A DNA stretch of 64,000 nt from Gammaproteobacteria bacterium (lineage in GTDB: Bacteria; Pseudomonadota; Gammaproteobacteria; CBDBNL01; JAAOII01), in assembly GCA_965209035.1 (NCBI GenBank), contig OZ242372.1, positions 648,958 through 712,957 on the forward strand, in the 5' to 3' direction. The notes below the pieces were generated by a model, which ran no database searches, had not been told where the DNA came from, and saw only the letters and a program-made list of their open reading frames with translations. Below are positions 30,375 to 50,033 of the stretch, one piece after another. Made by a program: the position numbers and the translations under genes. Position 1 is the first letter of the stretch. Each line of letters begins with the position of its first letter.

Positions 30375-31674
30375 TGCATAGTCTCATAAAGGTTCTGGAC
30401 TCTGAGTTTGGTATTGTGCGTCCTCAGATCAAGCAGCCGGAGGTTCTGTCGGACGGGTCGAAAATAGATCCGGCAACGGGTCTTCGGTATGTGGAGCTAG
30501 ATGAATGAAACGGGCAAGAAGGACGGATAGCTGTTTTGCTCTCACCGCCGCAGACAGCGGAGGCTTGTTGTTGATAAAACTGTCTAGGTGTATCCGCTGG
30601 CGAGACGGTACGGTTTGTGAGGGCAGCCGGACTGCACATTGGAAATGAGAGGAACACGTTTACGCTACATTGGTTATCGCGTGCGCGGTTTCAATAAAAT
30701 GGTGGTTTTAGCAAACAAATATTCAAACATGTCTAAAACCACCAAAATCAAACTGGACACCTTAGCGTTCGCGCGCAAACATGGTGTCGCGGCGGCGCTG
30801 GATCATGCCGGGATCAGTCGTGCTACATTCTACGAGTGGCAGCGGCGTTTCCGTGAAGGCGGGGTCGATGAACTGGCGAACAACTATGGGTATCAGCCCA
30901 AGCGGTCCAACACCTGGCCACCGGCACTGATTGACAAGATCCGGTCTTGGCGACAAGAGCGACCGAATATCGGTCCCAATAAACTGGTCTGCTTGTTACC
31001 CGAATGGTGCCAGCAGCAGGGGCTGCCGGCACCCAGCCGGTCAACCATTGCCCGCATCATCGCTGATGCACCGGGTAAGATGCGGCACCAGTCATCGCTG
31101 ACCGAGCAGAAGAACCCGCGGCAAGGTGCTCCTCGCGAGCGCAAGGACATCTGCTTTGTTGCGGGCCGGAGAGGTGAATGTGTTGCCTTTGATACGCTCG
31201 TCCGCATCGTCGATGGCCGGCGCTTTTATTGGCATGTCGGCATTGACCTATTTTCCCGCTTCTCACTGGTCAGTGTCGACACCTCCGCTGCTTCGGCCAG
31301 TTCCGCCCGGCTCTTTACCGCCATGCAAAACATACTCGGCACTCGGATCGAAAAAGTCCTCACCGATAATGGCAGTGAGTTCGCCAAAGACTTTCACCGG
31401 ATCGTGACCGCAAACGGCAGCACCCACTGGTATACTTATCCAAGGAAACCGCAAATGAATGCACACTGCGAACGGTTTAATCGCACTCTCTGGGAAGAGT
31501 TCGGTTGTCATATGCGGCATCTCTTGGTTAAGGATATGCCGGCATTCAACGCCAAACTCATCGAGTGGTTGGCTTGGTATAATCTTGAACGTCCCCATTA
31601 TGCTCTCAAACAACTCTCGCCGATCCAATTTTTGCAAAAACAACAAAAGTCCAGAAATGGGTGGGACCATACAA
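30375..31674 (+). mobile_element. IS element copy 1 (IS481-like, 1300 bp)
   Basis: A 1300-bp unit repeated in direct tandem. Left end TGCATAGTCTCATAAAGGTTCTGGAC, right end ...GTCCAGAAATGGGTGGGACCATACAA (imperfect terminal inverted repeats sharing TTCTGGAC). It is flanked by TTTGA / TTTG and encodes a single HTH plus rve-type transposase. Confidence 0.75.
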
Positions 31675-31685
31675 TTTGTGCATGA
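30729..31685 (+). CDS. Transposase (HTH + DDE/rve integrase core), IS481-family-like
   Basis: N-terminal HTH ('ISRATFYEWQRRFREGG'), an rve core with 'D..D' and the C-terminal 'NAHCERFNRTLWEEF' E-motif. Single ORF with no frameshift. Confidence 0.8.
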   Translation: MSKTTKIKLDTLAFARKHGVAAALDHAGISRATFYEWQRRFREGGVDELANNYGYQPKRSNTWPPALIDKIRSWRQERPNIGPNKLVCLLPEWCQQQGLPAPSRSTIARIIADAPGKMRHQSSLTEQKNPRQGAPRERKDICFVAGRRGECVAFDTLVRIVDGRRFYWHVGIDLFSRFSLVSVDTSAASASSARLFTAMQNILGTRIEKVLTDNGSEFAKDFHRIVTANGSTHWYTYPRKPQMNAHCERFNRTLWEEFGCHMRHLLVKDMPAFNAKLIEWLAWYNLERPHYALKQLSPIQFLQKQQKSRNGWDHTICA

Positions 31686-32978
31686 TCTCATAAAGGTTCT
31701 GGACTCTGAGTTCGGCATTGTGCGTCCTCAGATCAAGCGGCCGGAGGTTCTGTCGGACGGGTCGAAAATAGATCCGGCAACGGGCCTTCGGTATGTGGAG
31801 CTAGATGAATGAAACGGGCAAGAAGGACGGATAGCTGTTTTGCTCTCACCGCCGCAGACAGCGGAGGCTTGTTGTTGATAAAACTGTCTAGGTGTATCCG
31901 CTGGCGAGACGGTACGGTTTGTGAGGGCAGCCGGACTGCACATTGGAAATGAGAGGGACACGTTTACGCTACATTGGTTATCGCGTGCGCGGTTTCAATA
32001 AAATGGTGGTTTTAGCAAATCAATATTTAAACATGTCTAAAACCACCAAAATAAAACTGGACACCTTGGCGTTCGCGCGCAAACATGGTGTCGCGGCCGC
32101 GTTGGATCATACCAGGATCAGTCGTGCTACATTCTACGAGTGGCAGCGGCGTTTCCGTGAAGGCGGGGTCGATGAACTGGCGAACAACTATGGGTATCAG
32201 CCCAAGCGGTCCAACACCTGGCCACCGGCACTGATTACCAAGATCCGATCTTGGCGACAACAGCGTCCGAACATCGGTGCCGGTAAACTGGTCTGCTTGT
32301 TACCCGAATGGTGTCAGCAGCGCGGGCTGCCGCTGCCCAGCCAATCAACGCTCTCTCGCATCATTGCCGATGACCCGGATAAGATGCGGTGCAAACCATC
32401 GCGGTCCGTGCCGAAACGCCCGCGGCATGGTGCTCCGCGCGAGCGCAAGGACACCCGCTTTGTTGCGGGCCGGAGAGGTGAATGTGTTGCCTTTGATACG
32501 CTCGTCCGCATCGTCGATGGCCGGCGCTTTTATTGGCATGTCGGCATTGACCTATTTTCCCGCTTCTCACTGGTCAGTGTCGACACCTCCGCTGCTTCGG
32601 CCAGTTCCGCCCGGCTCTTTACCGCCATGCAAAACATACTCGGCACTCGGATCGAAAAAGTCCTCACCGATAATGGCAGTGAGTTCGCCAAAGACTTTCA
32701 CCGGGTCGTGACCGCAAACGGCAGCACCCACTGGTATACCTATCCAAGGAAACCGCAAATGAATGCACACTGCGAACGGTTTAATCGCACTCTCTGGGAA
32801 GAGTTCGGTTGTCATATGCGGCATCTCTTGGTTAAGGATATGCCGGCATTCAACGCCAAACTCATCGAGTGGTTGGCTTGGTATAATCTGGAACGTCCCC
32901 ATTATGCTCTCAAACAACTCTCGCCAATCCAGTTTTTGCAAAAACAACAAAAGTCCAGAAATGGGTGGGATCATACAA
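31679..32978 (+). mobile_element. IS element copy 2 (IS481-like, 1300 bp), separated from copy 1 by 4 bp (TTTG) and followed by TTTGA
   Basis: Near-identical ends to copy 1. One internal segment is highly diverged from copy 1. Confidence 0.75.
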
Positions 32979-32983
32979 TTTGA
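32033..32983 (+). CDS. Transposase (second copy)
   Basis: Same architecture as the copy-1 transposase. Confidence 0.8.
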   Translation: MSKTTKIKLDTLAFARKHGVAAALDHTRISRATFYEWQRRFREGGVDELANNYGYQPKRSNTWPPALITKIRSWRQQRPNIGAGKLVCLLPEWCQQRGLPLPSQSTLSRIIADDPDKMRCKPSRSVPKRPRHGAPRERKDTRFVAGRRGECVAFDTLVRIVDGRRFYWHVGIDLFSRFSLVSVDTSAASASSARLFTAMQNILGTRIEKVLTDNGSEFAKDFHRVVTANGSTHWYTYPRKPQMNAHCERFNRTLWEEFGCHMRHLLVKDMPAFNAKLIEWLAWYNLERPHYALKQLSPIQFLQKQQKSRNGWDHTI

Positions 32984-33057: not shown

Positions 33058-34986
33058 ATGCAAGCTGCAGTTCTTTGGCTGTGGGTTTTAGTTGTCCTGT
33101 ATTGGGCATATTGCATCTACTGGGGTATCCGGTGTATGCGTATGTCCAAGACAGCGGGAGATTACATGATTGCGGGGAGAAGTCTTCCAATCTGGGTATA
33201 TGTCCTGGCAGCAACTGCCACATCCTTTTCCGGCTGGACTTTTGTCGGCCACCCCGGTCTGTTATACACATCCGGGTTTCAATATGCTTACGCATCTTTT
33301 TATGCTATTACTATTCCGCTTACCGGTCTTCTGTTCCTTAAAAGGCAATGGCTGCTCGGCAAACGTTTCGGTTATGTAACACCGGGCGAAATGTTCGGTG
33401 ATTATTTCCGTTCCAATGCCATTCGTGTGTTGATCGTAATAGTTGCGTTTATATTTTCCGTGCCTTATCTGGGCATTCAGTTACGTGCCTCCGGCTTTTT
33501 GTTTCATGTATTGACAAACGAGGCCGTAGGTATTAACGCAGGGATGATCCTTCTTTCCGCGGTGGTGATACTTTATGTAGCATCCGGTGGTCTGAGGGCT
33601 GTTGCCTATGTGGATACATTGCAAGCAGTTTTGCTGGCATTCGGTATTCTACTCATTGGCTTTATCTCTCTGACTGCAATAGGCGGGATAGAAAGCTTTT
33701 CACGAGGGATTTTCCAGTTATCTCAAATTGATCAAAACCGAACACCGGCGGGTTATAGCCATTACATCGCCATTCCGGGAGTCATTCAGTTTGTATCCGC
33801 GGGTGCCAAGGCACAAGGCGGAGCATGGACCGGGGCAATGAATCTGACTTATATGTTCGCTCTTATGGGTATTCAATCCTCGCCGGCATTTTCTATGTGG
33901 GCATTTGCCAATCAAACACCGCGTTCCTTCGCACCTCAACAGGTATGGGCGTCTTCTTTTGGTATTGGTTTCATTCTGATCGTCTTTACCGCGATTCAAG
34001 GTATGGGCGGACATCTGCTTGGAGCGGATACGGCTTTCAACGCCGCATACCCAAACAGTGTGAATAATATCCTGGGAGATGGCCTTGGCGGCTTGGATCT
34101 GCTTCAAGTTGCCGGCGCCCAAGGGCAGTTGGTTCCGCGCTTGATTCAGTCTCTGGGCGATACTGCTCCGTTTCTGGTGGGTCTGCTGGCAGTCTGTGCG
34201 CTTGCCGCAATGCAATCCACAGGTGCGGCTTATATGTCCACGGCCGGTACCATGCTGACACGCGATGTCCTCTTACATTTCTTCAATCCGAAAATGTCGG
34301 ACGGCACACAAAAATTTTGGGCGCGTCTCAGTGTGTTAGTTATTGTTGGCTTGGCATTGGTTGTTGCGATCACTTCCACGGATGCTCTGGTTCTGCTCGG
34401 CGGGCTGGCAGTCGCATTTGGTTTTCAAATGTGGACAGCTCTCATGGCGATATGCTACTTTCCTTGGCTTACCAGAACCGGTGTTGTCGTTGGCTTGGTT
34501 TTGGGACTGATTGCCGTGATGATGACGGAAAGCATCGGCGTATCCTGGTTTGGCATAGAAGCCTGGGGTCGCTGGCCTCTGACATTGCATTCCGCTTTCT
34601 GGGGTATGCTGTTTAACCTGCCTGTGGCAATTGCCATTTCGTTCTTCACGCAGAACGCGGAAGATGCCGCACACAAAAATAAGTTCCACGACTTTTTGCG
34701 CGCCCACAGCGGCGTTCCGCAAGAGAAGAGAAGTTTGGTGCCGGTGGCATGGATCTTCGCTTTGGTGTGGTTCTTCTTTGGCGTAGGACCCGGTGCGGTC
34801 ATTGGCAATACTCTGTTTGGCAATCCCAACGATATTAACACCTGGCTTTTTGGCATCCCTTCCATTTGGACATGGCAAATCATCTGGTGGGCTATCGGGG
34901 TTTGCATGATGTGGTTTCTTGCTTATAAGATGGAATTTTCCACCTTTGGCGAGAAAGCGGACAGCATCAAGACCCTAAAAGAATAA
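33058..34986 (+). CDS. Sodium:solute symporter family (SSS/SSF) transporter
   Basis: 642 aa with at least 13 predicted TM segments and a 'GRSLP' motif near TM1 characteristic of the SSS family. Substrate unknown; the neighbouring acs suggests possible acetate or monocarboxylate uptake, which is inference only. Confidence 0.72.
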   Translation: MQAAVLWLWVLVVLYWAYCIYWGIRCMRMSKTAGDYMIAGRSLPIWVYVLAATATSFSGWTFVGHPGLLYTSGFQYAYASFYAITIPLTGLLFLKRQWLLGKRFGYVTPGEMFGDYFRSNAIRVLIVIVAFIFSVPYLGIQLRASGFLFHVLTNEAVGINAGMILLSAVVILYVASGGLRAVAYVDTLQAVLLAFGILLIGFISLTAIGGIESFSRGIFQLSQIDQNRTPAGYSHYIAIPGVIQFVSAGAKAQGGAWTGAMNLTYMFALMGIQSSPAFSMWAFANQTPRSFAPQQVWASSFGIGFILIVFTAIQGMGGHLLGADTAFNAAYPNSVNNILGDGLGGLDLLQVAGAQGQLVPRLIQSLGDTAPFLVGLLAVCALAAMQSTGAAYMSTAGTMLTRDVLLHFFNPKMSDGTQKFWARLSVLVIVGLALVVAITSTDALVLLGGLAVAFGFQMWTALMAICYFPWLTRTGVVVGLVLGLIAVMMTESIGVSWFGIEAWGRWPLTLHSAFWGMLFNLPVAIAISFFTQNAEDAAHKNKFHDFLRAHSGVPQEKRSLVPVAWIFALVWFFFGVGPGAVIGNTLFGNPNDINTWLFGIPSIWTWQIIWWAIGVCMMWFLAYKMEFSTFGEKADSIKTLKE

Positions 34987-35231: not shown

Positions 35232-35819
35232 ATGAAGCAAGACAGCCAATATGCGGCTCTTAAGTATGTCGCCTTTGGACTGGGAGCGGTATGGTTAATA
35301 TGGATCTTTTATGACGGCGTCCTGCAGGACGCCGGAGATCCATTAAAATCCGCTTACAATCGCGCATCGCGCGATTTTAAAGACGGTCATTACGACAAAG
35401 CACTCGCAAGTTATGATGCCGTGCTTTCCATTGAGCCAAACCACGAGGGGGCTCTTGGCGGCAAGGCCGCTTCTTTTTCAATGCTTGGACGATACCAAGA
35501 ATCTTTGGAAACTTACAATTTTTTAATTCGCGAATATCCGGGAGACGGCATTCATTATGCCAATCGCGGCATACTGCACGACAGGATGGGCTCTTATCGC
35601 CCGGCAATAGCCGACTATGACAAGGCTTATCAGCTGGATAAGGATCTGAACAAGGGACCGGGTTGGTTGACGCGGTTTTTACGCAATCAACAAAAAACTC
35701 CCGCTACCATAGTTGCCAGATCACATTACCTGAAAGAGCAACTGAAGTTGCCACCGCAGGAAAGAGTTTTGACTAACCCGCCGGAAGACAAAAAACAAAG
35801 ACCCTATATCAGAAGATAG
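35232..35819 (+). CDS. TPR-repeat protein with N-terminal TM anchor
   Basis: N-terminal TM helix followed by three or four TPR-like units (e.g. 'HYDKALASYDAVLSIEPNH', 'YQESLETYNFLIREYP', 'YRPAIADYDKAYQLD'). Confidence 0.6.
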   Translation: MKQDSQYAALKYVAFGLGAVWLIWIFYDGVLQDAGDPLKSAYNRASRDFKDGHYDKALASYDAVLSIEPNHEGALGGKAASFSMLGRYQESLETYNFLIREYPGDGIHYANRGILHDRMGSYRPAIADYDKAYQLDKDLNKGPGWLTRFLRNQQKTPATIVARSHYLKEQLKLPPQERVLTNPPEDKKQRPYIRR

Positions 35820-35862
35820 CGGGTCTATGCCATGCGGGGCTGTGCGGGGCCGTGCGGGGTTA

Positions 35863-36999
35863 TTACCGGCTGATCCTTTTTTGAGTGCGCGGAGAAAACA
35901 GATGGAATTCTTTAACACTGAGACGAATTTTTTCGCCGACGCCAAAGTTTTGCCGTCGATGAAACAGGACAATTAATGGGTCTCCGGGCGGCGACAGACA
36001 ATGCAGCACAGTTTGTGAACCCGTGTGTTCCGCCAATGTAACCCGCACTTCCGTTCCTTCTCTCGTGCTCGCTTCTTTGTCTTTTTTAATGCTCTTTTTT
36101 TCCGAAGCAGATAAATGAAAATGTTCGGGGCGAACACCGAGGATCACTTCTTTCTCCCTATTATCATTGTTATCATTACCTTTTACACTTGCGACATCCG
36201 TATTGGGTAACTCGAGTGACCAGTTGTTTTTATGAAATACAAGTGCGCCCTTCTCTCTTCGCACAGTTCCCCGGATAAAATTCATTGCCGGCGAGCCAAT
36301 GAAACCCGCCACAAACAGGTTGTTCGGTTTGTCATACAACTCCATCGGTTTTCCCTGCCGAACAATGCGACCGCGATCCAAAATGACGACTTGATCGGCA
36401 AGGGTCATGGCTTCCACCTGGTCGTGGGTTACATAAATAATGGTGTTCTTAAATTTTTGATGCAGTCTTTTGATTTCGGAACGCATGTGCATACGCAATT
36501 TGGCGTCCAAGTTAGACAGAGGTTCGTCAAACAAAAATAAATCGGGATTACGCACCAGAGCGCGACCCATCGCAACGCGTTGCCTTTGGCCGCCGGATAA
36601 TTGGGCGGGGCGATAACTGAGTTGCTCGCGAAGATTGAGCGTATCGGCGACCTCCCCCACCCTTCTTTTTATTTCTTTGGCGGATACCTTGCGAATTTTT
36701 AAGCCGTAAGAAATATTGTCGTAAACATTCATATGGGGAAAGAGCGCGTAGCTCTGAAAAACCATTGAAGTGTTTCTTTGTTGGGGAGCGAGACGGGTGT
36801 AGTCCCGGTTATTGACTAGAACCCGTCCCCGGGTGGGCTCTTCCAGACCGGCAATGATCCGCAGAAGAGTTGTTTTGCCGCAACCGGAAGGGCCGATCAG
36901 GACGACAAATTCTTTATCGGCAATTTTCATGTTGATGTTTTCAAGGACAGCTTTGTCGCCAAATGATTTGTCAATGTTTTTGATTTCAAGTTTTGCCAT
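35863..36999 (-). CDS. Sugar ABC transporter ATP-binding protein (MalK/UgpC type)
   Basis: Walker A 'GPSGCGKTT', signature 'LSGGQRQR', Walker B 'FLFDEPLSNLD', and a C-terminal MalK-like regulatory (TOBE) domain. Confidence 0.88.
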   Translation of the reverse strand: MAKLEIKNIDKSFGDKAVLENINMKIADKEFVVLIGPSGCGKTTLLRIIAGLEEPTRGRVLVNNRDYTRLAPQQRNTSMVFQSYALFPHMNVYDNISYGLKIRKVSAKEIKRRVGEVADTLNLREQLSYRPAQLSGGQRQRVAMGRALVRNPDLFLFDEPLSNLDAKLRMHMRSEIKRLHQKFKNTIIYVTHDQVEAMTLADQVVILDRGRIVRQGKPMELYDKPNNLFVAGFIGSPAMNFIRGTVRREKGALVFHKNNWSLELPNTDVASVKGNDNNDNREKEVILGVRPEHFHLSASEKKSIKKDKEASTREGTEVRVTLAEHTGSQTVLHCLSPPGDPLIVLFHRRQNFGVGEKIRLSVKEFHLFSPRTQKRISR

Positions 37000-37029
37000 G
37001 GTGTTACTGTTTGTGTTTGTTTGTTATTG

Positions 37030-37830
37030 TTAGAAACTGTTTGTGTTGCTGTCGGTGATCTCGGCTGCCATGCCAATATTGCCGACACTCAGTCCGCAAT
37101 CTACGGGTAGCAGAACGCCGCTAATGGCGGCTGCCTTGTCCGAGAGTAAGAATTCGGCCGCATCGGCAATATCCTGCGGACAGACCAAGCGGCCGAGCGG
37201 ATAATATTTGCGGAGAGTTTGCATTAGTTGCGGTCGCTTGGCCAGACGCTGTTCCCAGGCGACTGTCTTGACAGAACCGGGACAGATGGCATTAATCCGC
37301 AGTCCGTGACGGCCGTATTCGGCCGCCAGGGAAAAGACCATATTATGAAGAGCCGCTTTGGCCGCACTGTAGGCCGGATTCCCGTAATACCGGAAACCGT
37401 TGACACTACCGATGAACAACATCACTCCCGCCCTTTTTATGAAGGCCGGCATCAGCGCATGGCAACAATAATAGGCGGAATTCATATTTAAGTTCATCTC
37501 CGTTTGCCATTGGGTCGGGTCTAAGGCCGCGTATGTTTCCGCTCGGGTCTCGCCGACATTGTTGATAAACCTTGTAATGCCAGAATTCTCCGCGGGCAAC
37601 CGAGAAAAAACCTTCGCCACTTCGGCGGCGGAAGTAACATCCAAGCAGACAAACCGTACTCTGCCATCGCATTCGGTGAGAGTGTTGTTAATGCGTTCGG
37701 CGGATTTTTGCCCCGCCTTCTCGTCCCGGTCTATGGCGAACACTTGCATACCCAAGCGGGCAAAATGAGCGGTCAGTGCTTCGCCTATGCCTTTGGCAGA
37801 TCCGGTAATGATGATCCCTGCGGCTTTCAT
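37030..37830 (-). CDS. Short-chain dehydrogenase/reductase (SDR) family oxidoreductase
   Basis: 'ITGSAKGIG' cofactor-binding motif, catalytic 'YSAAK', and a 'NAICPG' region. Confidence 0.88.
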   Translation of the reverse strand: MKAAGIIITGSAKGIGEALTAHFARLGMQVFAIDRDEKAGQKSAERINNTLTECDGRVRFVCLDVTSAAEVAKVFSRLPAENSGITRFINNVGETRAETYAALDPTQWQTEMNLNMNSAYYCCHALMPAFIKRAGVMLFIGSVNGFRYYGNPAYSAAKAALHNMVFSLAAEYGRHGLRINAICPGSVKTVAWEQRLAKRPQLMQTLRKYYPLGRLVCPQDIADAAEFLLSDKAAAISGVLLPVDCGLSVGNIGMAAEITDSNTNSF

Positions 37831-39011
37831 ATGGCGTTCCGGCCTCTTTTGTGCAAAATTTGTTTAAGGGTTTTCAAATTATCGGTTGTTAGGAGACCGT
37901 AGTTATAAAAAGCAATTTGAGGAATTTCGTGCTTTGCCAATTCCGGAAGTATTTGATTGAGTTCTTCGGTCTGCATATCCGGTAAGCCGGGACGCAGAAT
38001 GCAGTTGATGTCTGCCTTTGCCGCGGCCGAGCGATTGCGAACCATTAGGAAATTGGCAAGAATTTTTGTGAAGTTGTCGCCATAAAGCGGAAGTTCCAAA
38101 TAATCCGACGCTTTGGCAAGGGCGGCATAATCCGTTCCTTCGGTCCAAGCAAGGCCGAGCGGTTGTCGAACACTCGGGATACAACCCAGGGATACCGCCG
38201 AAGGAATACTTTGTTTTATCTCGCCGACCAAAGATGTCACTTGTTGGCTGCGCCAATTAATGAAATCACCGAGGCCTTCGCCTTGTTTGTCTTGCAGAAA
38301 ATCATAGAGCATCCAGCTTTCGGCACTGTCGGCGAGATCCGGCGCGTAGTTTAGTTGAAAATCCAATTGCTTTTTGACTTTGTCACGGACGGAAACAAAG
38401 TCTATGCCGGCCGCCTCGGCTCGCTTTTGGCAGGCCTCGCAAAAACACAATCCCAGCAGAGTTTCAACAAAAGCATTGAGCGGAAATTGCGAAAATTCAT
38501 GGTGGTAACCGTGCGCGTAAGGCATAAAGCCGGGCGTTTCAACAACGATGCTTTGGATGGGATAATTCTCGGCCAGGTCTTTGCAGAGAGTGACGGCGTA
38601 TTCTCGGACAGAATCTTGAGACAAGCATAAGTTGTACACATATCCGTCGCCATAGACATTCTTGACTGTGAGGTGCGGGTGTTTGCCACCCAGTCGGCTG
38701 TTGTGAAAGAGCACTGTCCAAGCGCGAACATCGGCTTGAGTGGCAATCTTTTTATAAAGATCCGTATCGTTTACGATGGAACTCATTTGGGGTTTGACTT
38801 CGCCGTAAACCGCCCGCGGACGAAAGTAAACCGTGCCGTCTTCGGGAAAGTAAACGCGAGATTTTTGGTTGCGCGGCTGCAAGAACTTGCCGGCATGATA
38901 GGATGCCGCCAGAGTGATGCTGTCGCAGCCGAGGGATTTTAAGTCAGTTAATGCGTCCCGCAGTGGTCTGTCGGCCAGGTCCCATAAGTATACATAAGCG
39001 GAAAATTTCAT
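37827..39011 (-). CDS. Hypothetical protein (394 aa), possible TIM-barrel-type carbohydrate-active enzyme, embedded in the sugar ABC operon
   Basis: Start MKFSAYVYLWDL at 39011, overlapping the upstream permease stop. Its own stop overlaps the SDR start. I recognise no signature motif, so the function is not assignable from the sequence. Confidence 0.45.
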   Translation of the reverse strand: MKFSAYVYLWDLADRPLRDALTDLKSLGCDSITLAASYHAGKFLQPRNQKSRVYFPEDGTVYFRPRAVYGEVKPQMSSIVNDTDLYKKIATQADVRAWTVLFHNSRLGGKHPHLTVKNVYGDGYVYNLCLSQDSVREYAVTLCKDLAENYPIQSIVVETPGFMPYAHGYHHEFSQFPLNAFVETLLGLCFCEACQKRAEAAGIDFVSVRDKVKKQLDFQLNYAPDLADSAESWMLYDFLQDKQGEGLGDFINWRSQQVTSLVGEIKQSIPSAVSLGCIPSVRQPLGLAWTEGTDYAALAKASDYLELPLYGDNFTKILANFLMVRNRSAAAKADINCILRPGLPDMQTEELNQILPELAKHEIPQIAFYNYGLLTTDNLKTLKQILHKRGRNAI

Positions 39012-39838
39012 TTTACCGCTCCCATGGACAGACCTTCTATGAGGTACTTTTGCAGCCAAGCAAAAGCGATCGCCACGGGAAGAATTGCAAGCAGACTGGC
39101 GCCCATCACATGATGCCATTCTATTGAGTATCGGCCGCCGACCAGAGAATGAACTTGCAAAGTGAGGGTGAACTTCTCTTGCGAACGCAGCACGGACAGG
39201 GCTATGACGAATTCATTCCATGCCATGACGAAAGTGAAAATGGCGGCTACAACCAGGGCCGGAAGTGCAAGGGGTAAAAATACGCCGATGACGCCGCGCA
39301 GCCTTCCGCAGCCTTCCAGCCAGGCCGCTTCTTCCAGATCCTTGGGGATCGTCGCAAAGTAATTTTGCAGCATCCAAACACAAAACGCAAGATTGAAAGC
39401 GGTATAACATAAAACCAGAGAATTCAGTTGGTCTATGAGACCCAGATAAGCAATGAGTTTAAACAGCCCGACGACAAGAACAATCGGCGAGAGCATTTGA
39501 GTTACCAGTAAGAAGTAACTGACAAAATTTTTGGCGCGAAATTTGTAACGTGCCAGCGCGTAAGCCATCGGGACGGCAATGAACAGAGTGCAGATGGTGC
39601 TGGCACCCGCCACATACAAACTGTTAACCAGGGCTCTGCCGAAGCCGGTCGCTTGCCACATGTCCGCATAGTTCCGCCAATTGAACATTTCGGGCAGCCA
39701 GCGAGTCGGATAGGCGAATACTTCCGCCTGGGACTTGAGCGAGGTGAGCAGCATGACAGCCATCGGGAACAAAATAAAAAATAGAACCGGAAGCATGAAC
39801 GACCAGCAGATTAAAGTCTTATATAGTTTGTTTTGCAC
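39008..39838 (-). CDS. Sugar ABC transporter permease (MalG/UgpE-like)
   Basis: Six TM segments and an EAA-like loop ('LEEAAWLEGCG...'). Confidence 0.82.
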   Translation of the reverse strand: MQNKLYKTLICWSFMLPVLFFILFPMAVMLLTSLKSQAEVFAYPTRWLPEMFNWRNYADMWQATGFGRALVNSLYVAGASTICTLFIAVPMAYALARYKFRAKNFVSYFLLVTQMLSPIVLVVGLFKLIAYLGLIDQLNSLVLCYTAFNLAFCVWMLQNYFATIPKDLEEAAWLEGCGRLRGVIGVFLPLALPALVVAAIFTFVMAWNEFVIALSVLRSQEKFTLTLQVHSLVGGRYSIEWHHVMGASLLAILPVAIAFAWLQKYLIEGLSMGAVK

Positions 39839-40739
39839 TTTTTTGTATCAGTCGGATATATAAAACAATAAAAATCATTAGGATGGCGAACATAATCAGC
39901 GAAAGAGCGGCGGCATCATCCAAACGCCCGAAACGAAATGCCAACTTGTATAAATAAGTTACCAGAATGTCCGTGGCATTTGCGGGACCTCCCTGAGTGG
40001 TGACCCAAATGATCGGGAAAGAATTAAAGACATAAATCATGTTCAACACAATTGCCATGTTCAAAAAAGGACGCATCATTGGCAAGGTGAGGGTGTAAAA
40101 TCTGCGCACATAGTCGGCGCCTTCCACTCTGGCCGCATCATAAATCTCCGCGGAAATAGACGCCAAACCGCCAAGAAAAATTGCAACTGTGAACGGAATA
40201 GAAACAATGATGCCGATGACTATTTGCCAGGCAAATGCGGTGATTGCCGTCCCAAACCAAAATATAGGTTCGTTGATTAACCCGGCCTGACGTAACAGAT
40301 GGTTCATTAACCCGTATTCTCCGTTTAGAACCCAACGCCAAACAATGCCCATCATGGCAAGAGAGATTGCCCAGGGTAACATGATCAAAACACGGGCGAT
40401 GTTTCTGCCGTAAAAATTTTCTCGCAGAATTAATGCCAGGGGCATAGACAAAACAATGGTCCCCGTAACCACAAGGATCATCCATATCAGGGTGCGCGCA
40501 AGAGCGCCAAAAAATAAAGGGTCGGTAAGAACAGTGCCGAAGTTTTCCAGACCGACAAAACCGCGCAGGCTGCCAAAACGACTTACATTATGCGATGCCA
40601 GAATAATGAGCTCCGTTAGCGGGTAAAGAATGACAAATCCCGCAAACAATAATCCGGGAAGGACCATCATATAAGGGAAGTATCCGCCTCTTTGGCGCAA
40701 GTTTTCCTTGGGCCTCACTTTTTCTTCTTGCCGCCGCAC
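39819..40739 (-). CDS. Sugar ABC transporter permease (MalF/UgpA-like)
   Basis: Six TM segments and the EAA motif 'IYDAARVEGADYVRRF'. Start uncertain (could be the internal MMVLPG). Confidence 0.8.
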   Translation of the reverse strand: MRRQEEKVRPKENLRQRGGYFPYMMVLPGLLFAGFVILYPLTELIILASHNVSRFGSLRGFVGLENFGTVLTDPLFFGALARTLIWMILVVTGTIVLSMPLALILRENFYGRNIARVLIMLPWAISLAMMGIVWRWVLNGEYGLMNHLLRQAGLINEPIFWFGTAITAFAWQIVIGIIVSIPFTVAIFLGGLASISAEIYDAARVEGADYVRRFYTLTLPMMRPFLNMAIVLNMIYVFNSFPIIWVTTQGGPANATDILVTYLYKLAFRFGRLDDAAALSLIMFAILMIFIVLYIRLIQKSAKQTI

Positions 40740-40864
40740 TATTATTGCACTCTTATATCACCAAAAAGATGAACGGGGTTCTCTCTTTTTGTTAAATTCA
40801 AAACCGCTGTAAACCGCCATGGCACCGTATAAAACGGTGCCATAACGAGAAATAATTGACTTAT

Positions 40865-42088
40865 TTAATTTTTAATGATGCGATTAACTTGCTTGGCCGC
40901 CCGTCTGAGGTTGGTGCGCGCGTTGCCCTTGCCTTGGTAAGTTTTTTGCAAGGCACTGCCGGTCGCATCCGCAGCTTCTTCCCAACCCTTCAGAGTCGGC
41001 GCAAAGTGCGCATAGGGTAACATGCCGGAAAATGCTTGCAGGTTTGGATCATTGGCAAAGTAAGGATCCGCCGCCACCTTCACGTGCACAGGCATAAATC
41101 CCTCTCCTTTGGTGAACTTGCTGCGCCACTTCTCTTGGAAAATAAAGTCCAGGAATTTAAATGCCGCATCCTTGTTTTTGGAATTTTTGAAAAGAACAAT
41201 GGAGTCTGTCACGCCGTATGTTGCATACCTTTTGGCCTTGGGAATGAGAGCAATACCAAAATCAACATTTGGCGCTTCCGCTTTCATTTGACCCGTCAGC
41301 CAGGGACCGGTAAACATCATACCGAGCCTTCCCTGCTTGAACAGATTCTGAAGGTCTTCGCGCGCATAATCGGTTACACCGGGCTGTGTCAAACCTTTGT
41401 CAATCATCTTTTTATAGAAGTTTGCCGCTTGTATGGCTTCGGGAGAAGCAATGCCACTCTTACCGTCAACGACAATATCACCGCCAAAGGCCCAGAGTGC
41501 GTAATACCAATAAGCATCCGTTTCAATTTCCTTGCCCTGTAAGCCGAATCCATAGGCATCCGGTAAGGCGGAAATTTTTTCGGCAGCTGCGTAAAGTTGA
41601 TCCCAAGTTTCGGGAACGGAAGTTACGCCGGCCTTTGCAAAAAGTTCTTTATTGTAATACATGGCACGGGCCGAGGCGGCTACGGGCAAGCCGTAGGTTT
41701 TGCCGTTCAGAACGGACGGTGCCAGGAAGTTACCAATGAACCTGCTTTTTAACTCGGGCGTCATATGACCGTCCAAGGGTTCAATCACATCTTGGTCGAC
41801 AAAATCCAACAGCCATCTGGTGCCGATAATGGCGATGTCCGCGTTGGCATTGGCGGTAATGTCGGTAGTCAGTTTTTGTAACAGGTTATCCCAGTTAACA
41901 ACTTCCACTTTGACCTTAATGTTTTTGTTCTGTCTTTCAAATGCACGGGCGGCCTCTTCAAAGATGGGGCCGGATTTGGCACTATAGTATGCCACCGTGA
42001 ATCTGACTTCATCGGCTGCTTGAACATTGATGCTCAAGAACCCGAAAGATAAAAGAAAGATATAAAAAAGAGTTTTGATTTTTTTCAT
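40865..42088 (-). CDS. Extracellular solute-binding protein (family 1, sugar ABC)
   Basis: Signal peptide (MKKIKTLFYIFLLSFGFLSINVQA) and a roughly 380-aa periplasmic binding-protein fold with typical Trp/Tyr-rich segments. Confidence 0.8.
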   Translation of the reverse strand: MKKIKTLFYIFLLSFGFLSINVQAADEVRFTVAYYSAKSGPIFEEAARAFERQNKNIKVKVEVVNWDNLLQKLTTDITANANADIAIIGTRWLLDFVDQDVIEPLDGHMTPELKSRFIGNFLAPSVLNGKTYGLPVAASARAMYYNKELFAKAGVTSVPETWDQLYAAAEKISALPDAYGFGLQGKEIETDAYWYYALWAFGGDIVVDGKSGIASPEAIQAANFYKKMIDKGLTQPGVTDYAREDLQNLFKQGRLGMMFTGPWLTGQMKAEAPNVDFGIALIPKAKRYATYGVTDSIVLFKNSKNKDAAFKFLDFIFQEKWRSKFTKGEGFMPVHVKVAADPYFANDPNLQAFSGMLPYAHFAPTLKGWEEAADATGSALQKTYQGKGNARTNLRRAAKQVNRIIKN

Positions 42089-42362
42089 ACTAATTATGTT
42101 CTCCTTAATGAATGATTTGATTAAAAGTAATATGCCGGATGTTATGGCAAGAGAACATCGCCCTGTTCAATCCACGGACTGAATGCGGCGACCTTCTCTT
42201 TTTGTATAACATCTGTCATTTGTTTATTATATACACAAAATTGGATTTTTGTCACTTAAAAGAAAAAACGGACTTCGGGACCGAGAGCTCGCCCCCCGGA
42301 AAATCTCCCCGGAAGAGATAATATCAACAACAAAGTTCCAAATAATTCTCCCGTTGTTTATA

Positions 42363-45680: not shown

Positions 45681-48600
45681 TTATAGGACCGCGTCATCGG
45701 CGGAAACCTGAGCATCATCCGATTTGGAAGCGGGTTCTTCGCCGTTTATATCTTCTGTTACTGAGTTCTCACCGGCTTCGGCTTGCTGCTGTTGAATACT
45801 CTTATAATACGAAAAACCCGTGCCCGCGGGTATCAGGCGACCCACAATTACATTTTCTTTCAATCCTTTTAGCGTATCTTCCTTGGCATGGATAGCCGCT
45901 TCTGTGAGGACACGCGTTGTCTCTTGAAAGGATGCCGCGGAAATAAATGACTCGGTGGACAAGGAAGCACGAGTGATACCCAGTAAGATGTGTTTATATT
46001 GTGCCGGCTTTTTCTTATCTTCTTTGAGTTGGTGATTCATCTCCAGCAAGCGATTATACCCTATTTGATCGCCTGTAATTAAGTCGGAATCACCCGGATT
46101 GGTGATGCTTACTTTACGCAACATCTGTGAGATAATCACTTCTATGTGCTTATCGTCAATATGAACACCCTGTGATCTGTAGATGTTTTGAACCTCGCGC
46201 ACCATATATTCAACCAGACTCCCTACCCCTTTGAGAGCAAGAATGTCATGCGGATTATAGATACCTTCACAAAGCATATCTCCTACCGCAACCGGATTAC
46301 CGTCAAACACGCTGATGTGACGACGCTTGGGAATCGCGATCTCATTCAATAGTTCTTCCCGGGCTGAAAGAATCCGGACCTTTATCTTATCTTTGGTCTC
46401 CTTGCCGAACTTGACTGTTCCGGCAACGGGGGCAAGGATTGCGGCATCTTTGGGGACACGTGCTTCAAAAATATCCGCAACACGCGGTAAGCCACCGGTA
46501 ATGTCGCTGGACTTTTGCTCTTCTATGGCAATTCTGGCGATAGCATCTCCTTCGCTAACTTTTGCTCCTTCCTCAAGAGAAACTACCGACCGGGCGGGAA
46601 GAACATAAACCAAGAGTCTTTCCGTGCCGGGTTCATGAATTTGTTTTTTATTTTTATCTACCAGGTAGATCGCCGGCTTTAAATCCCTGCCAGTTGTGGG
46701 TCTTTCAAGGGGATTGATCACCTCAATAGAAGTTGTCCCGGTCATCTTGTCTGTCTGACGACGAATACTCATGTTTTCTTCAAAATCGGCAAAAAGCAAA
46801 TATCCGTTCACCTCGGCAATAATGGGCATGTTGTGTGGTTCCCATACTGCTATTGTTTGACCGCCCGTTACTTTTTCGCCATTTTTTACCGAGATAATGG
46901 CACCATAGATAATCTTGTAATTTTCACATTCGCGATCATTGACATCCAGAATAGACAAACTACCGGAACGGGAAGTGACGACATAACAATCGTCTTTGTT
47001 TTTCACATAGGTAATGTTATTAAAACGCACCGTACCACCTATCTTAACAGTCACATTGCTGTCGCGAGTTTGCCGACTTGCCGCACCTCCCACATGAAAG
47101 GTTCGCATGGTTAATTGGGTGCCGGGTTCGCCGATAGACTGGGCGGCGATGATACCAACCGCTTCGCCTATATTTACAAGTGCTCCGCGTGCCAAGTCAA
47201 TACCATAGCATTTTTTACATATCCCGTGCTTGGTTTGACATGTAATGGAGGATCGCACATAAACTTGATTAATATGATACTCTTCAAGGACTTTCAGTTT
47301 CTCTTCATCTACATATGTCCCTTTCGGCAATATCACCTTATTATTTGCCGCGACGATATCCTTGGCAAGTATCCGACCAAATACCCGTTCCGATAAAGAA
47401 ATCGTTGTGGTTCCTCCTTCAATAACAGCACTCATACTGACACCCCGCTCGGTTTCGCAATCTTCTTCCGTGATGATGACATCTTGTGAAATATCAACCA
47501 ACCGGCGCGTCAAGTAACCGGAGTTAGCAGTCTTCAACGCCGTATCCGCCAGCCCTTTGCGTGCTCCGTGTGTGGATATAAAGTATTGCAGAACCGAAAG
47601 GCCCTCGCGAAAGTTGGCGGTGATTGCGGTTTCAATGATAGAGCCATCGGGTTTGGCCATCAGACCGCGCATGGCCGCCAGTTGCCGAATTTGCTGTTCG
47701 GAACCTCTTGCGCCGGAATCGGCCATCATGTATACGGAGTTAAAAGATTCTTCTTCCACCGGGTCTTCCGTCTTATCCTTACTTGGCACAACCTCTTTGC
47801 TCATTCCAATCATCATTTCTTTGGAAACTCTGTCACCGGCATTTGACCAGAGATCAACGACCTTGTTATACTTCTCACCTTGCGTGATAAGACCTTCAGA
47901 AAATTGCTTTTCTATAAATACCACTTCTTTTTCCACCCCTTGCAATATGGTTTTCTTTGTCTTCGGAATCTGAAGATCTTCCACCGCGATAGATGTCCCG
48001 GAAGATGTCGCATATTGAAATCCAAGATACATTAACTGATCCGCAAAAACAACCGTATCTTTCAAACCCAAACGACGATAGCTGATATCCACCAGATTTG
48101 AGATATTCCCTTTTTTCATGGTTGTATTCACCGGATAAAAATCTATCCCGCGCGGAACAATCCCAAACAAAATGACTCTTCCCGTTGTTGTGGTGTAAAT
48201 CCTTTCTTCCATAATCTCATGGCCGTTCTCGTCAATGGAATAGGACTTAATTCTGGCACGAATACGAGCATGCAGGGCAACTTCTCCGTTATGATAGGCA
48301 CGCTCCACTTCGGCGGCATCGGCGAATAACATATTTTCGCCCTTGGAATTCAGTTTTTCACGCGTTAAATAATACAAGCCAAGAACAATATCCTGCGAGG
48401 GGACAATGATCGGGGCTCCGTTTGCCGGCGACAAGATGTTGTTGGTTGACATCATAAGAACACGTGCCTCTTCCTGCGCCTCGTAACTCAACGGAACATA
48501 TACCCCCATCTGATCTCCGTCAAAATCGGCGTTATAGGCGGCACATACCAAAGGATGGAGCTGAATTGCCTTGCCTTCTATGAGGACCGGTTCAAATGCT

Positions 48601-50033
48601 TGAATTCCCAAGCGATGCAAAGTGGGTGCCCGATTGAGCAAAACAGGATGCTGCTTGATAACTTCCGCCAGTATATCCCACAGACTTGCATCTTCCCTTT
48701 CCACAATTTGCTTGGCCTCTTTGATGCTGCTCGCTTCACCGCGATTAATTAATTTGGAAAATACAAACGGCTTAAACAATTCTATTGCCATTTTTTTTGG
48801 CAAGCCACATTCATGCAGTTTAAGATCCGGTCCCACCGCAATAACCGAACGGCCGGAATAGTCCACTCGCTTTCCAAGCAAGTTTTGTCGAAACCGTCCC
48901 TGTTTGCCCTTGATCATGTCCACCAAGGATTTAAGCGGCCGCTTATTATGGTCCACCAGAGGTTGGTTGTCCCGACTATTGTCCAGTAACCGATCTACGG
49001 ATTCTTGCAGCATGCGTTTTTCATTGTTTATGATAATTTCCGGGGCATGCAAATCCAACAGTTTCTTAAGGCGGCCGTTACGATTAATGACCCGGCGATA
49101 GCAGTCATTTAGATCGGAAGCGGCAAAGCGACCGCCCTCCAACGGAACCAAGGGGCGTAATTCCGGCGGCAACACGGGGAGAACCTTAAATATCATCCAA
49201 GAAGGTTTGTTCTTGCCGGCATCAAACGCCTCCAACACTTTTAACCTGGCAGAAAGTTTTCTTTCAGTGAGTTCGGAACGACGACGTGCCGCCGTCAATT
49301 GAAGACGAACCGCCTTAATTTGTTCGGGAATGTCCACTTTTTCGATCATCTCCAATATGGCTTCGGCCCCCATTCCAACTCGGAATGCGTTCGGGTCGGG
49401 ATACTCCTCGCGCAGATGATGATATTCTTCCTCCGTGAGAATTTGCCCGACTTTGACTTGCTTGGTTTCCGATTCGTCTTTGTCTTTTTTATCTTTTTTA
49501 CCTTTCTTATCTTTTGTCTCTTTCTTATCTTTTGTCTCTTTCTTACCCGTTTCGCTTTTATCGGTCTTTTCGGCAGCGACATCCAAAATGACATGGGATT
49601 CAAAGTAAAGAATTCGCTCCAAACTCCTCAAAGGAAGTCCCAAAAATAAAGCAAGGCGAGAAGGCAATGACTTGAGAAACCAGATATGTGCCACGGGGCT
49701 GGCAAGTTCAATATGTCCCATACGCGTTCGCCGAACTTTGGAAAGTGTGACCTCCACACCGCATTTTTCGCAAACAACACCGCGATGTCGCTGCCTTTTA
49801 TACTTGCCGCAAAGACATTCGTAATCTTTGATGGGGCCGAAAATTCTGGCACAAAAGAGCCCGTCTCTCTCGGGCTTAAAAGTGCGATAATTGATGGTCT
49901 CGGATTTCTTAACTTCTCCGTAAGACCAAGAACGAATAGTTTCCGGAGATGCCAGGCGAATAAAAACCGAGCGGATTTCTTTGCGAGCCTCTGTGCCGAT
50001 CTCCTTATTATTGTTTATCATTTCATCAATCAT
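45681..50033 (-). CDS. rpoC: DNA-directed RNA polymerase subunit beta'
   Basis: N-terminal zinc finger 'CLCGKYKR...CEKCGVEV', the 'NADFDGDQM' catalytic motif, and full-length collinearity. Carries a K/E/T-rich insert of about 40 aa near residue 170. Confidence 0.97.

Follow-up and report, generated by a model that had tools for sequence, protein, structure and literature searches.

An unannotated glycoside hydrolase-like barrel protein coupled to a short-chain dehydrogenase in a sugar importer operon, and a possible oxidative entry into N-acetylhexosamine catabolism

Introduction

What do an enzyme of no recognizable family and the dehydrogenase coupled to it contribute to a sugar uptake operon? 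The question is raised by positions 35863-42088 of a 64,000-nucleotide stretch of gammaproteobacterial DNA (assembly GCA_965209035.1, contig OZ242372.1, positions 648,958 to 712,957; hereafter the window). An initial annotation, made from the letters and their translations, had read this region as six minus-strand genes, encoding a substrate-binding protein (SBP), two permeases, an unknown enzyme, a short-chain dehydrogenase/reductase (SDR) and a MalK-type ATPase. Our analysis confirms both the coordinates and the families. Five of the six open reading frames (ORFs) are identified by Pfam and NCBIfam, and the sixth, a 394-residue protein that we call UNK, by neither library.

Operons that join an ATP-binding cassette (ABC) importer to catabolic genes are of an ordinary type. 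The best explanation of the region is a single transcription unit in which a CUT1-type ABC importer carries a two-gene catabolic cassette, UNK-SDR. That these two enzymes start the breakdown of some sugar or glycoside had been proposed at the outset, and genome context supports the proposal, with the partner genes in other bacteria narrowing the likely substrates to N-acetylated amino sugars or the C1-oxidized acids of these. Within that class we tentatively favor, at well below even confidence, a role for the SDR as an N-acetylhexosamine 1-dehydrogenase and for UNK as the lactonase that follows it in N-acetyl-amino-sugar catabolism.

Results

UNK belongs to a large family with a glycoside hydrolase-like fold

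A word-indexed search returned at least 1,220 homologs of UNK, every one named "hypothetical protein". With an exhaustive profile search the family grew to 2,227 representatives at 50% identity (E ≤ 1e-3), and 734 of these also passed E ≤ 1e-30. Full-length relatives among the 150 best matches are single-domain proteins of approximately 370–455 residues, while shorter entries look like fragments. Counting one genome per species, UNK occurs in at least 573 species of the Alpha-, Beta- and Gammaproteobacteria, Acidobacteriota and Gemmatimonadota. UNK matched no model in Pfam or NCBIfam, the PDB yielded only noise to either a single-sequence or a profile query, and a literature search found no publication characterizing the family. 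The protein thus has no assignable family, as first noted: no confident match to a characterized family of known substrate was found, and its only likeness to known proteins lies at the level of fold.

An AlphaFold2 model built from a 28-sequence alignment (pLDDT 88.6, pTM 0.91) is a Cwp19-like (β/α)8 barrel with a helical insertion of approximately 100 residues after the strand that ends at Glu158 (β4). Foldseek searches with this model retrieved glycoside hydrolase-like TIM barrels. The nearest fold-level relative is Cwp19 of Clostridioides difficile (PDB 5oq2), the representative of GHL10 (PF02638), a group without a settled substrate. The window UNK does not match PF02638 at E ≤ 0.01 or at E ≤ 1, while 21 of 28 relatives match it weakly (best 8.4e-7). 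UNK is therefore best explained, from its predicted structure, as a large unannotated family with a GHL10/Cwp19-type glycoside hydrolase-like fold.

Several features separate UNK from its relatives in fold. Cwp19 is a secreted cell-wall protein, whereas UNK is cytoplasmic and single-domain. Cwp19 is reported to be a lytic transglycosylase (PMC6016235). Compared with GHL10, UNK has a histidine cluster, a four-cysteine motif and the insertion after β4, and it is genetically tied to an SDR, a tie not described for GHL10. The GH42 β-galactosidases and the C-terminal domain of PgaB (GH153), which have GH-A-like barrels, share 12-15% identity with UNK; relative to GH42, UNK lacks the conserved β7 nucleophile Glu as well as the trimerization and C-terminal domains. 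By sequence and by fold UNK is also not a member of the SMP30/gluconolactonase, amidohydrolase-superfamily or metallo-β-lactamase (MBL)-fold lactonases.

The start of UNK is the Met encoded at 39011, where every aligned homolog begins. None of these homologs has a signal peptide, so UNK is taken to be cytoplasmic. A 430-residue ORF from the ATG at 39119 was ruled out on the same alignment. The frame is open for 36 codons further 5' (39012-39119, minus strand), its ATG lying inside the permease gene, and no homolog is extended in this way; automatic annotation of UNK may be over-extended to that position. The closest relative of UNK is P0001 from a sister strain, with 90% identity, a length of only 369 residues and an alignment over 82% of the query. 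Truncation or divergence at its C-terminus may account for this, and the gene could be decaying in that strain.

The conserved residues include one invariant acid

Conservation was computed on 124 divergent representatives, 25-43% identical to UNK. Glu158 is the sole residue invariant across all of them. Asp11, Tyr38, His39, Trp98, His103, Cys129, Cys189 and Tyr369 are at least 95% conserved, and His167, His170, His171, Arg254, Cys191, Cys194 and Tyr310 approximately 90-94%. The candidates for a second carboxylate, apparently invariant among close relatives, lose their conservation across the family (Glu291, 34%; Glu306, 27%; Asp345, 49%). The two blocks quoted in the initial annotation lie in this conserved core: VVETPGF..HGYHHEF holds Glu158 together with His167, His170, His171 and Glu172, and WTVLFHN holds Trp98, His103 and Asn104. 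His39, His103, His167, His170 and His171 make up the histidine cluster. Cys129, Cys189, Cys191 and Cys194 form a C..E..CxCxxC motif (91-96% conserved) around Glu158, and this set resembles, and may correspond to, the structural Zn site that flanks the acid/base Glu of a Thermus GH42 enzyme.

The fold landmarks described for Cwp19 are an acid at the end of β4 (Cwp19 Asp196, GH42 Glu161, PgaB Asp466), a Tyr at the end of β6 and an aromatic residue at the end of β8 (PMC5765458). In GHL10 a Gly (Cwp19 Gly328) takes the place of the clan GH-A β7 nucleophile (PMC5765458). Mapped by strand order and not by superposition, Glu158 of UNK ends strand 154-158, Tyr310 falls at β6 and Phe368-Tyr369 at β8. 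The strand assigned by the same order to β7 (334-339) runs into Arg340-Pro-Gly342 with no Glu, at a variable position. The GH-A pair of a β4 acid/base and a β7 nucleophile glutamate is thus reduced in UNK to conserved Glu158 alone. UNK would keep the acid and lack the classical nucleophile. A single invariant acid with conserved histidines, and no conserved second carboxylate, is atypical for a two-carboxylate glycosidase.

UNK and the SDR form the conserved unit

To place UNK in genome context, we called ORFs in 82 non-redundant UNK loci and classed the neighbors by homology and Pfam. Greedy ORF calling mixed antisense shadow ORFs with real genes, and the counts given here are a homology-based recount, with partners scored within 6 kb of UNK. 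Of the 77 loci that could be evaluated, 62 have an orthologous SDR gene as the next one downstream of UNK on its strand, and the linkage spans the Alpha-, Beta- and Gammaproteobacteria, Acidobacteriota and Gemmatimonadota. An orthologous CUT1 binding protein adjoins UNK in 9 of the 82 loci (49-77% identity). It is UNK-SDR, and neither the transporter nor the whole operon, that is conserved as a functional unit.

The SDR carries the classical signatures TGSAKGIG at residue 9, NNVG at 90 and YSAAK at 154. Asp33 at the end of β2 is an NAD(H)-type signature. Its nearest PDB entry, 5tt0, is uncharacterized.

Comparison across genomes also brought out partners of an amino-sugar type. The most frequent are a Gfo/Idh/MocA dehydrogenase (30/82 loci), RidA (28/82, 18 of them directly upstream), a D-aminoacylase-like Amidohydro_3 protein (26/82) and a D-serine-dehydratase-like (DSD-like) pyridoxal phosphate (PLP) enzyme (23/82). 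An NMT1-type ABC binding protein is present in 17 loci, RpiR in 14 and a DGOK-family kinase in 10; KDPG aldolase, TonB receptors and SSS and MFS transporters occur in some. Two Undibacterium loci (L037 and L061) unite many of these functions in a single operon, DGOK-SBP-permease-permease-RidA-UNK-SDR-ATPase-DSD-like-amidohydrolase, with transporter proteins 49-54% identical to their orthologs in the window. Locus L017 combines RpiR, the transporter (58-60% identical), UNK, SDR, ATPase and an amidohydrolase. The cluster of L035 goes on to Gfo/Idh/MocA, an RbsD/FucU mutarotase, a BadF/G-type kinase, a PIG-L de-N-acetylase and a NagB-like protein; these partners, like the GH88 and PL8 genes of L067 and L047 below, point to amino sugars.

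Some of the rarer partners bear on the form in which the sugar arrives. GH88 lies directly upstream of RidA-UNK-SDR in L067, and L047 has both GH88 and a PL8 lyase. RbsD/FucU mutarotases occur in three UNK loci and an aldose 1-epimerase in one. Mutarotase, epimerase, GH88 and PL8 together indicate a free monosaccharide, since GH88 and PL8 enzymes release free N-acetylhexosamine (HexNAc). GH20, GH3 and SMP30 are not recurrent in the UNK loci with an ong-like partner set (see below), Amidohydro_2 occurs in two UNK loci only, and no canonical lactonase recurs. Loci that lack the D-aminoacylase type of deacylase (cluster c3) still pair UNK most often with other amidohydrolases, and they show no recurrent family of sugar-acid dehydratases.

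Three further associations were seen near UNK. A protein of approximately 114 residues without a Pfam family (cluster c14; for example L018:7617-7961 and L058:7639-7983) is encoded in 12 loci at a distance of up to 6 kb from UNK. In 9 of them it stands immediately upstream, and it holds the position that RidA takes elsewhere; its usual company is an NMT1-type ABC transporter and Gfo/Idh/MocA. PhyH-family (Fe/2-oxoglutarate) dioxygenases gave three matches near UNK-SDR in the ong-like set and five in the other set, including L075:10058-11119, L071 and L056. A flavin monooxygenase-like gene lies within 6 kb of UNK in six loci.

The partner set resembles, and differs from, the ong pathway

The ong cluster of Pseudoalteromonas prydzensis catabolizes N-acetylglucosaminic acid (GlcNAc1A) derived from chitin oxidized by lytic polysaccharide monooxygenases (PMC9537276). 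Its members are OngR (RpiR), OngB (D-aminoacylase type), OngC (D-amino-acid deaminase type), OngD (RidA), KdgK and TonB and SSS transporters (PMC9537276). Approximately one third of the UNK genomes have a similar set beside UNK-SDR, namely a deacetylase, deaminase, RidA, RpiR, kinase and TonB with SSS/MFS transporters. UNK and SDR are missing from the published cluster, which has a GH20 (OngA), whereas the window has UNK and SDR and none of the ong enzymes. The kinases also differ: the one beside UNK is of the DGOK type (galacto series), and that of ong is KdgK.

The specificity residues of PpOngB, whose structure has been published, are Ala193, Ala256, Gln298 and Gly348 (PMC12017989). We compared the UNK-linked deacylases at these positions with AfDam as the numbering ruler, and all eight check residues agreed with the published assignments (PMC12017989). 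The metal/catalytic set Cys/His/His/Asp is kept in 22 of 22 UNK-linked deacylases (cluster c3, for example L037:12548-14014), which are approximately equidistant from AfDam and PpOngB. At the four specificity positions they read [F/Y/I]-A-D-[Q/L], mostly with an aromatic residue for PpOngB Ala193. Position 298 is Asp in 20 of the 22, compared with Gln298 in PpOngB, Leu298 in AfDam and Arg in BbDam, an N-acyl-D-glutamate deacylase. Judged by these residues, the UNK-linked D-aminoacylase-like proteins form a specificity group of their own, and the differing pocket residues rule them out as bona fide GlcNAc1A deacetylases. The acid that they handle probably belongs to the 2-acetamido-aldonic acids but is not GlcNAc1A, or not GlcNAc1A alone. 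A galacto-configured acid, derived from GalNAc, is a guess that would suit both the DGOK kinase and the GH88/PL8 partners.

The best PDB match of the amidohydrolase, 9g5m, is a D-acylase used in biocatalysis and was set aside as carrying no physiological information, and the nearest structure to the DSD-like PLP enzyme is an uncharacterized "D-serine deaminase".

A possible oxidative route for N-acetylhexosamines

In the route that we infer, the CUT1 transporter would import a sugar of the N-acetylhexosamine type, either GlcNAc or GalNAc, as the free sugar or within a small glycoside. The anomeric carbon of this sugar would be oxidized by the SDR with NAD+, giving an N-acetylhexosaminono-lactone, which UNK would open to N-acetylhexosaminic acid by way of Glu158 on β4 and the histidine cluster. 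A glycoside hydrolase-like pocket that binds oxocarbenium- or lactone-like sugars would be reused in this step, with Glu158 and the histidines activating water. In many other genomes, which encode the later steps alongside, the D-aminoacylase-like amidohydrolase would then take off acetate, the DSD-like PLP enzyme and RidA would take off ammonia to give 2-keto-3-deoxy-hexonate, and a kinase and an aldolase would complete the route.

The SDR is favored as the 1-dehydrogenase because of its NAD-type signature. The two-gene coupling fits as well, since making the open-chain acid from a free N-acetylhexosamine takes both a 1-dehydrogenase and a lactonase. Oxidative, non-phosphorylative aldose pathways pair genes for a sugar 1-dehydrogenase, such as L-fucose or D-xylose dehydrogenase, with genes for a lactonase. 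The likeness to these pathways lies in an NAD-type SDR coupled to a hydrolase-like partner and in the enzymes that other UNK genomes add, which would lead from an aldonic acid to a 2-keto-3-deoxy acid and on through a kinase and aldolase. The proposed pathway differs from them in having deacetylation and PLP-dependent deamination instead of dehydration. N-acetylhexosamine 1-dehydrogenase (EC 1.1.1.240) is an orphan activity, and our literature search returned no relevant paper on genes for it or on an oxidative GlcNAc pathway.

Several observations weigh against this route. We know of no lactonase with a glycoside hydrolase fold, which leaves the key step without precedent; known lactonases are SMP30 β-propellers, amidohydrolase-superfamily barrels or metallo-β-lactamase folds. 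The close structural neighbors of UNK are all glycosidases or a lytic transglycosylase, and the roles given to its residues come from strand order and not from superposition. The SBP is nearer to oligosaccharide than to monosaccharide binders, its nearest liganded structures being Lin1841, CbpB and GacH. The Gfo/Idh/MocA protein found in 30 of the 82 loci could be the real 1-dehydrogenase. In the deacylases, Asp at the Gln298 position and an aromatic residue at Ala193 mean that the acid is probably not GlcNAc1A itself. Amidohydrolase, DSD-like, RidA, kinase and RpiR genes of the ong type are absent from the 64-kb window, as is an aldolase for the last step, and approximately 24 of the 82 loci have no tracked partner family near UNK except the SDR.

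The structural neighbors and the binding protein suit a glycosidase better. UNK would then be a cytoplasmic enzyme of a new, GHL10-related glycoside hydrolase family, acting on an imported HexNAc disaccharide, for example chitobiose or C1-oxidized chitobiose (GlcNAc-GlcNAc1A). Catalysis would be substrate-assisted, the acid being Glu158 and the nucleophile the 2-acetamido group. The SDR would then oxidize the released reducing HexNAc. Both halves would enter the N-acetylhexosaminate pathway, and UNK would stand in for the periplasmic GH20 OngA. This fits the position of Glu158 at the β4 acid site and, by strand order, the match of Tyr310 and Phe368-Tyr369 to landmarks of Cwp19, GH42 and PgaB. 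Like GHL10, UNK lacks the β7 nucleophile Glu, as neighboring-group mechanisms predict. TonB receptors in some clusters, the lack of any recurrent GH20 or GH3 in ong-like loci with UNK and the conserved Arg254 and Lys/Arg42, which could hold an aglycone carboxylate, point the same way. However, the coupling of a glycosidase gene to one given SDR in 81% of loci would be unusual, and the lactone made by the SDR would have no dedicated hydrolase. GH88 in L067 and L047 already frees the monosaccharide, mutarotases elsewhere suggest a monosaccharide substrate, and five conserved histidines with no second conserved carboxylate are atypical of a glycosidase. We regard a glycosidase, the main rival of the favored route, as unlikely, while giving it real weight.

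The frequent trios of UNK, SDR and Gfo/Idh/MocA raise another mechanism, in which glycoside cleavage is redox-assisted. The SDR, with Gfo/Idh/MocA where present, would oxidize a ring hydroxyl, for example at C3, and UNK would then eliminate or hydrolyze the keto-glycoside, in analogy to the 3-keto-glycoside routes for lactose, trehalose and levoglucosan. Such pathways exist beside ABC transporters, the thuEFGK-thuAB operon being one, and a single invariant acid/base with histidines would suit elimination. The known lyases and hydrolases of 3-keto-glycoside catabolism, however, belong to the xylose-isomerase-like TIM barrels or to DUF1080 and are not glycoside hydrolase-like barrels. The mechanism also leaves the link to D-aminoacylase, DSD-like enzyme and RidA unexplained, as these need a C1 carboxylate beside the N-acyl carbon. 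We consider it very improbable. A 3'-ketolactose hydrolase is mentioned in published work (PMC9007349).

The gaps in the window's own gene content bear on whether the amino-sugar context transfers to this genome at all. Here the operon might serve a neutral, non-amino sugar or glycoside, with UNK and SDR as hydrolase and dehydrogenase for a plant, algal or host glycoside. The missing downstream genes and the partner-free loci are as expected from this, the window UNK is only 41-46% identical to UNK of the ong-like loci, and the nearest liganded relatives of the SBP bind glucans. However, approximately 60 positions are invariant among 28 aligned UNK members, which argues for one substrate class. 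The window transporter is moreover orthologous (49-60% identity) to those of L017, L037, L052 and L061, all beside D-aminoacylase-like genes, and amidohydrolases are the top partner even in loci that are not ong-like. A neutral sugar is accordingly quite unlikely, in our judgment.

Layout and control of the operon

The features of the operon are collected in Table 1. A family-1 SBP, two BPD_transp_1 permeases and a MalK-type ATPase with an OB/TOBE C-terminus together make a CUT1 importer. The ATPase matches UgpC/MalK models at 1.1e-129 (UgpC subfamily) and 2e-113. The true start of permease 1 may lie a few codons 3' of the first GTG.

Table 1. Features of the importer operon and candidate control signals, in window positions
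Feature	Position	Strand	Evidence and remarks
SBP, periplasmic substrate-binding protein, 407 aa	40865..42088	-	SBP_bac_1 1.8e-53; CUT1-type carbohydrate importer
SBP N-terminal Sec signal	within 40865..42088	-	..SINVQA/ADE
Permease 1, MalF/UgpA-like	39819..40739	-	BPD_transp_1; UgpA/MalF models
Permease 2, MalG/UgpE-like	39008..39838	-	BPD_transp_1
UNK, cytoplasmic (β/α)8-barrel protein, 394 aa	37827..39011	-	Unannotated family, distant GHL10 relative
SDR, classical, 266 aa	37030..37830	-	adh_short 1.5e-42
ATPase, MalK/UgpC-type	35863..36999	-	ABC_tran, OB_MalK and TOBE_2
Promoter candidate, sigma-70-like	42226..42255	-	GTGACA-18 nt-TATAAT, 11/12 matches; ~140 nt 5' of SBP start
Perfect stem-loop, 9 bp	40819..40843	-	ATGGCACCG-TTTTATA-CGGTGCCAT; directly 3' of SBP stop, inside the 125-nt gap
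Intrinsic-terminator-like hairpin	35790..35831	-	Stem AGACCC...GGGUCU then UUUGUUUUUUG; 30 nt past ATPase stop

The initial annotation had described all six genes as translationally coupled. This stands for three of the five junctions: direct reading of the sequence places ATGA overlaps at permease 2/UNK and UNK/SDR, and the two permease genes share 20 nt. It does not extend to SDR/ATPase, with a spacer of 30 nt, or to SBP/permease 1, with a gap of 125 nt. A related metagenomic genome (L001) has the identical six-gene order and the same chromosomal context, with 59-83% protein identity (80% for permease 1). The recurrence of this order, together with UNK-SDR adjacency in 62 of 77 loci, indicates that the arrangement is not due to chance.

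Promoter-like sites are no more frequent in the region than in shuffles, so the site in Table 1 is a candidate only. A Shine-Dalgarno sequence, AAGGAG, stands directly 5' of the SBP ATG. The stem-loop behind the SBP gene may act as an intra-operon attenuator or mRNA stabilizer. The terminator-like hairpin folds at -22 kcal/mol over a 78-nt stretch and overlaps the end of a convergent gene for a tetratricopeptide repeat (TPR) protein; a consensus terminator scan did not flag it. No riboswitch or other Rfam RNA element was found in the region, the sole match being a sub-threshold sok, and comparison with L001 revealed no conserved operator 5' of the SBP gene, where the sequences are too diverged.

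The flanking genes include no regulator on either side, in agreement with the first reading of the locus. They are an AcuI/YhdH-type reductase, iscSUA and rpoC on one side, and the TPR protein, a generic SSS symporter, two IS481 copies and acs on the other. The symporter (642 residues, 33058-34986, plus strand) is syntenic with the operon in L001, which has two paralogs of it at 75% and 86% identity. It was considered as an OngIT-like partner and ruled out: it is 21% identical to the SSS proteins of ong-like UNK operons and matches generic models only. Between acs and the symporter, the two IS481-family elements form tandem direct repeats (30401-31678 and 31705-32982, plus strand), 95% identical over 1,278 nt, with transposases of approximately 346 residues each (ORFs 30639-31685 and 31943-32983).

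The host belongs to an uncultured lineage

RpoB (50094-54149, minus strand) shares no more than 55% identity with its counterpart in any named organism, the nearest named ones all being Gammaproteobacteria, and relatives at 59-75% identity were found in metagenomes only. By this marker the host appears to be a deep, uncultured lineage. A scan of species-representative genomes gave no UNK relative above 46% identity, from which we conclude that the host lineage is absent from that set. RpoC (45681-50033, minus strand) has a highly charged insertion rich in Lys, Asp and Glu at residues ~155-190.

Discussion

The UNK family comprises more than 2,000 clusters at 50% identity. It is nameless, has no Pfam or NCBIfam model and no solved relative, and is tied to a single subfamily of SDRs. 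The UNK-SDR cassette is probably the entrance to an oxidative pathway for N-acetyl amino sugars. Thousands of "hypothetical proteins" would gain an annotation once the activity of the UNK family is assigned, and the outcome would be either a new glycoside hydrolase family or a glycoside hydrolase fold with lactonase chemistry.

The fullest form of the reading that we favor is that UNK is a new family in which a GHL10-like barrel was recruited as an N-acetylhexosaminono-lactonase, opening, with the SDR as a candidate for the orphan N-acetylhexosamine 1-dehydrogenase, an undescribed non-phosphorylative pathway. We hold this to be possible but on balance rather unlikely. If it is true, the pathway would be an amino-sugar counterpart of the De Ley-Doudoroff route, leading from HexNAc through the lactone, N-acetylhexosaminate and hexosaminate to 2-keto-3-deoxy-hexonate. 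Hundreds of species in soil, freshwater and marine habitats would then carry it, and amino sugars from chitin, glycosaminoglycans or cell walls would feed it. Assigning the activity of UNK could also show that many non-marine bacteria route N-acetyl amino sugars (from chitin, glycosaminoglycans or peptidoglycan) by an oxidative, D-amino-acid-like path and not by NagK/NagA/NagB.

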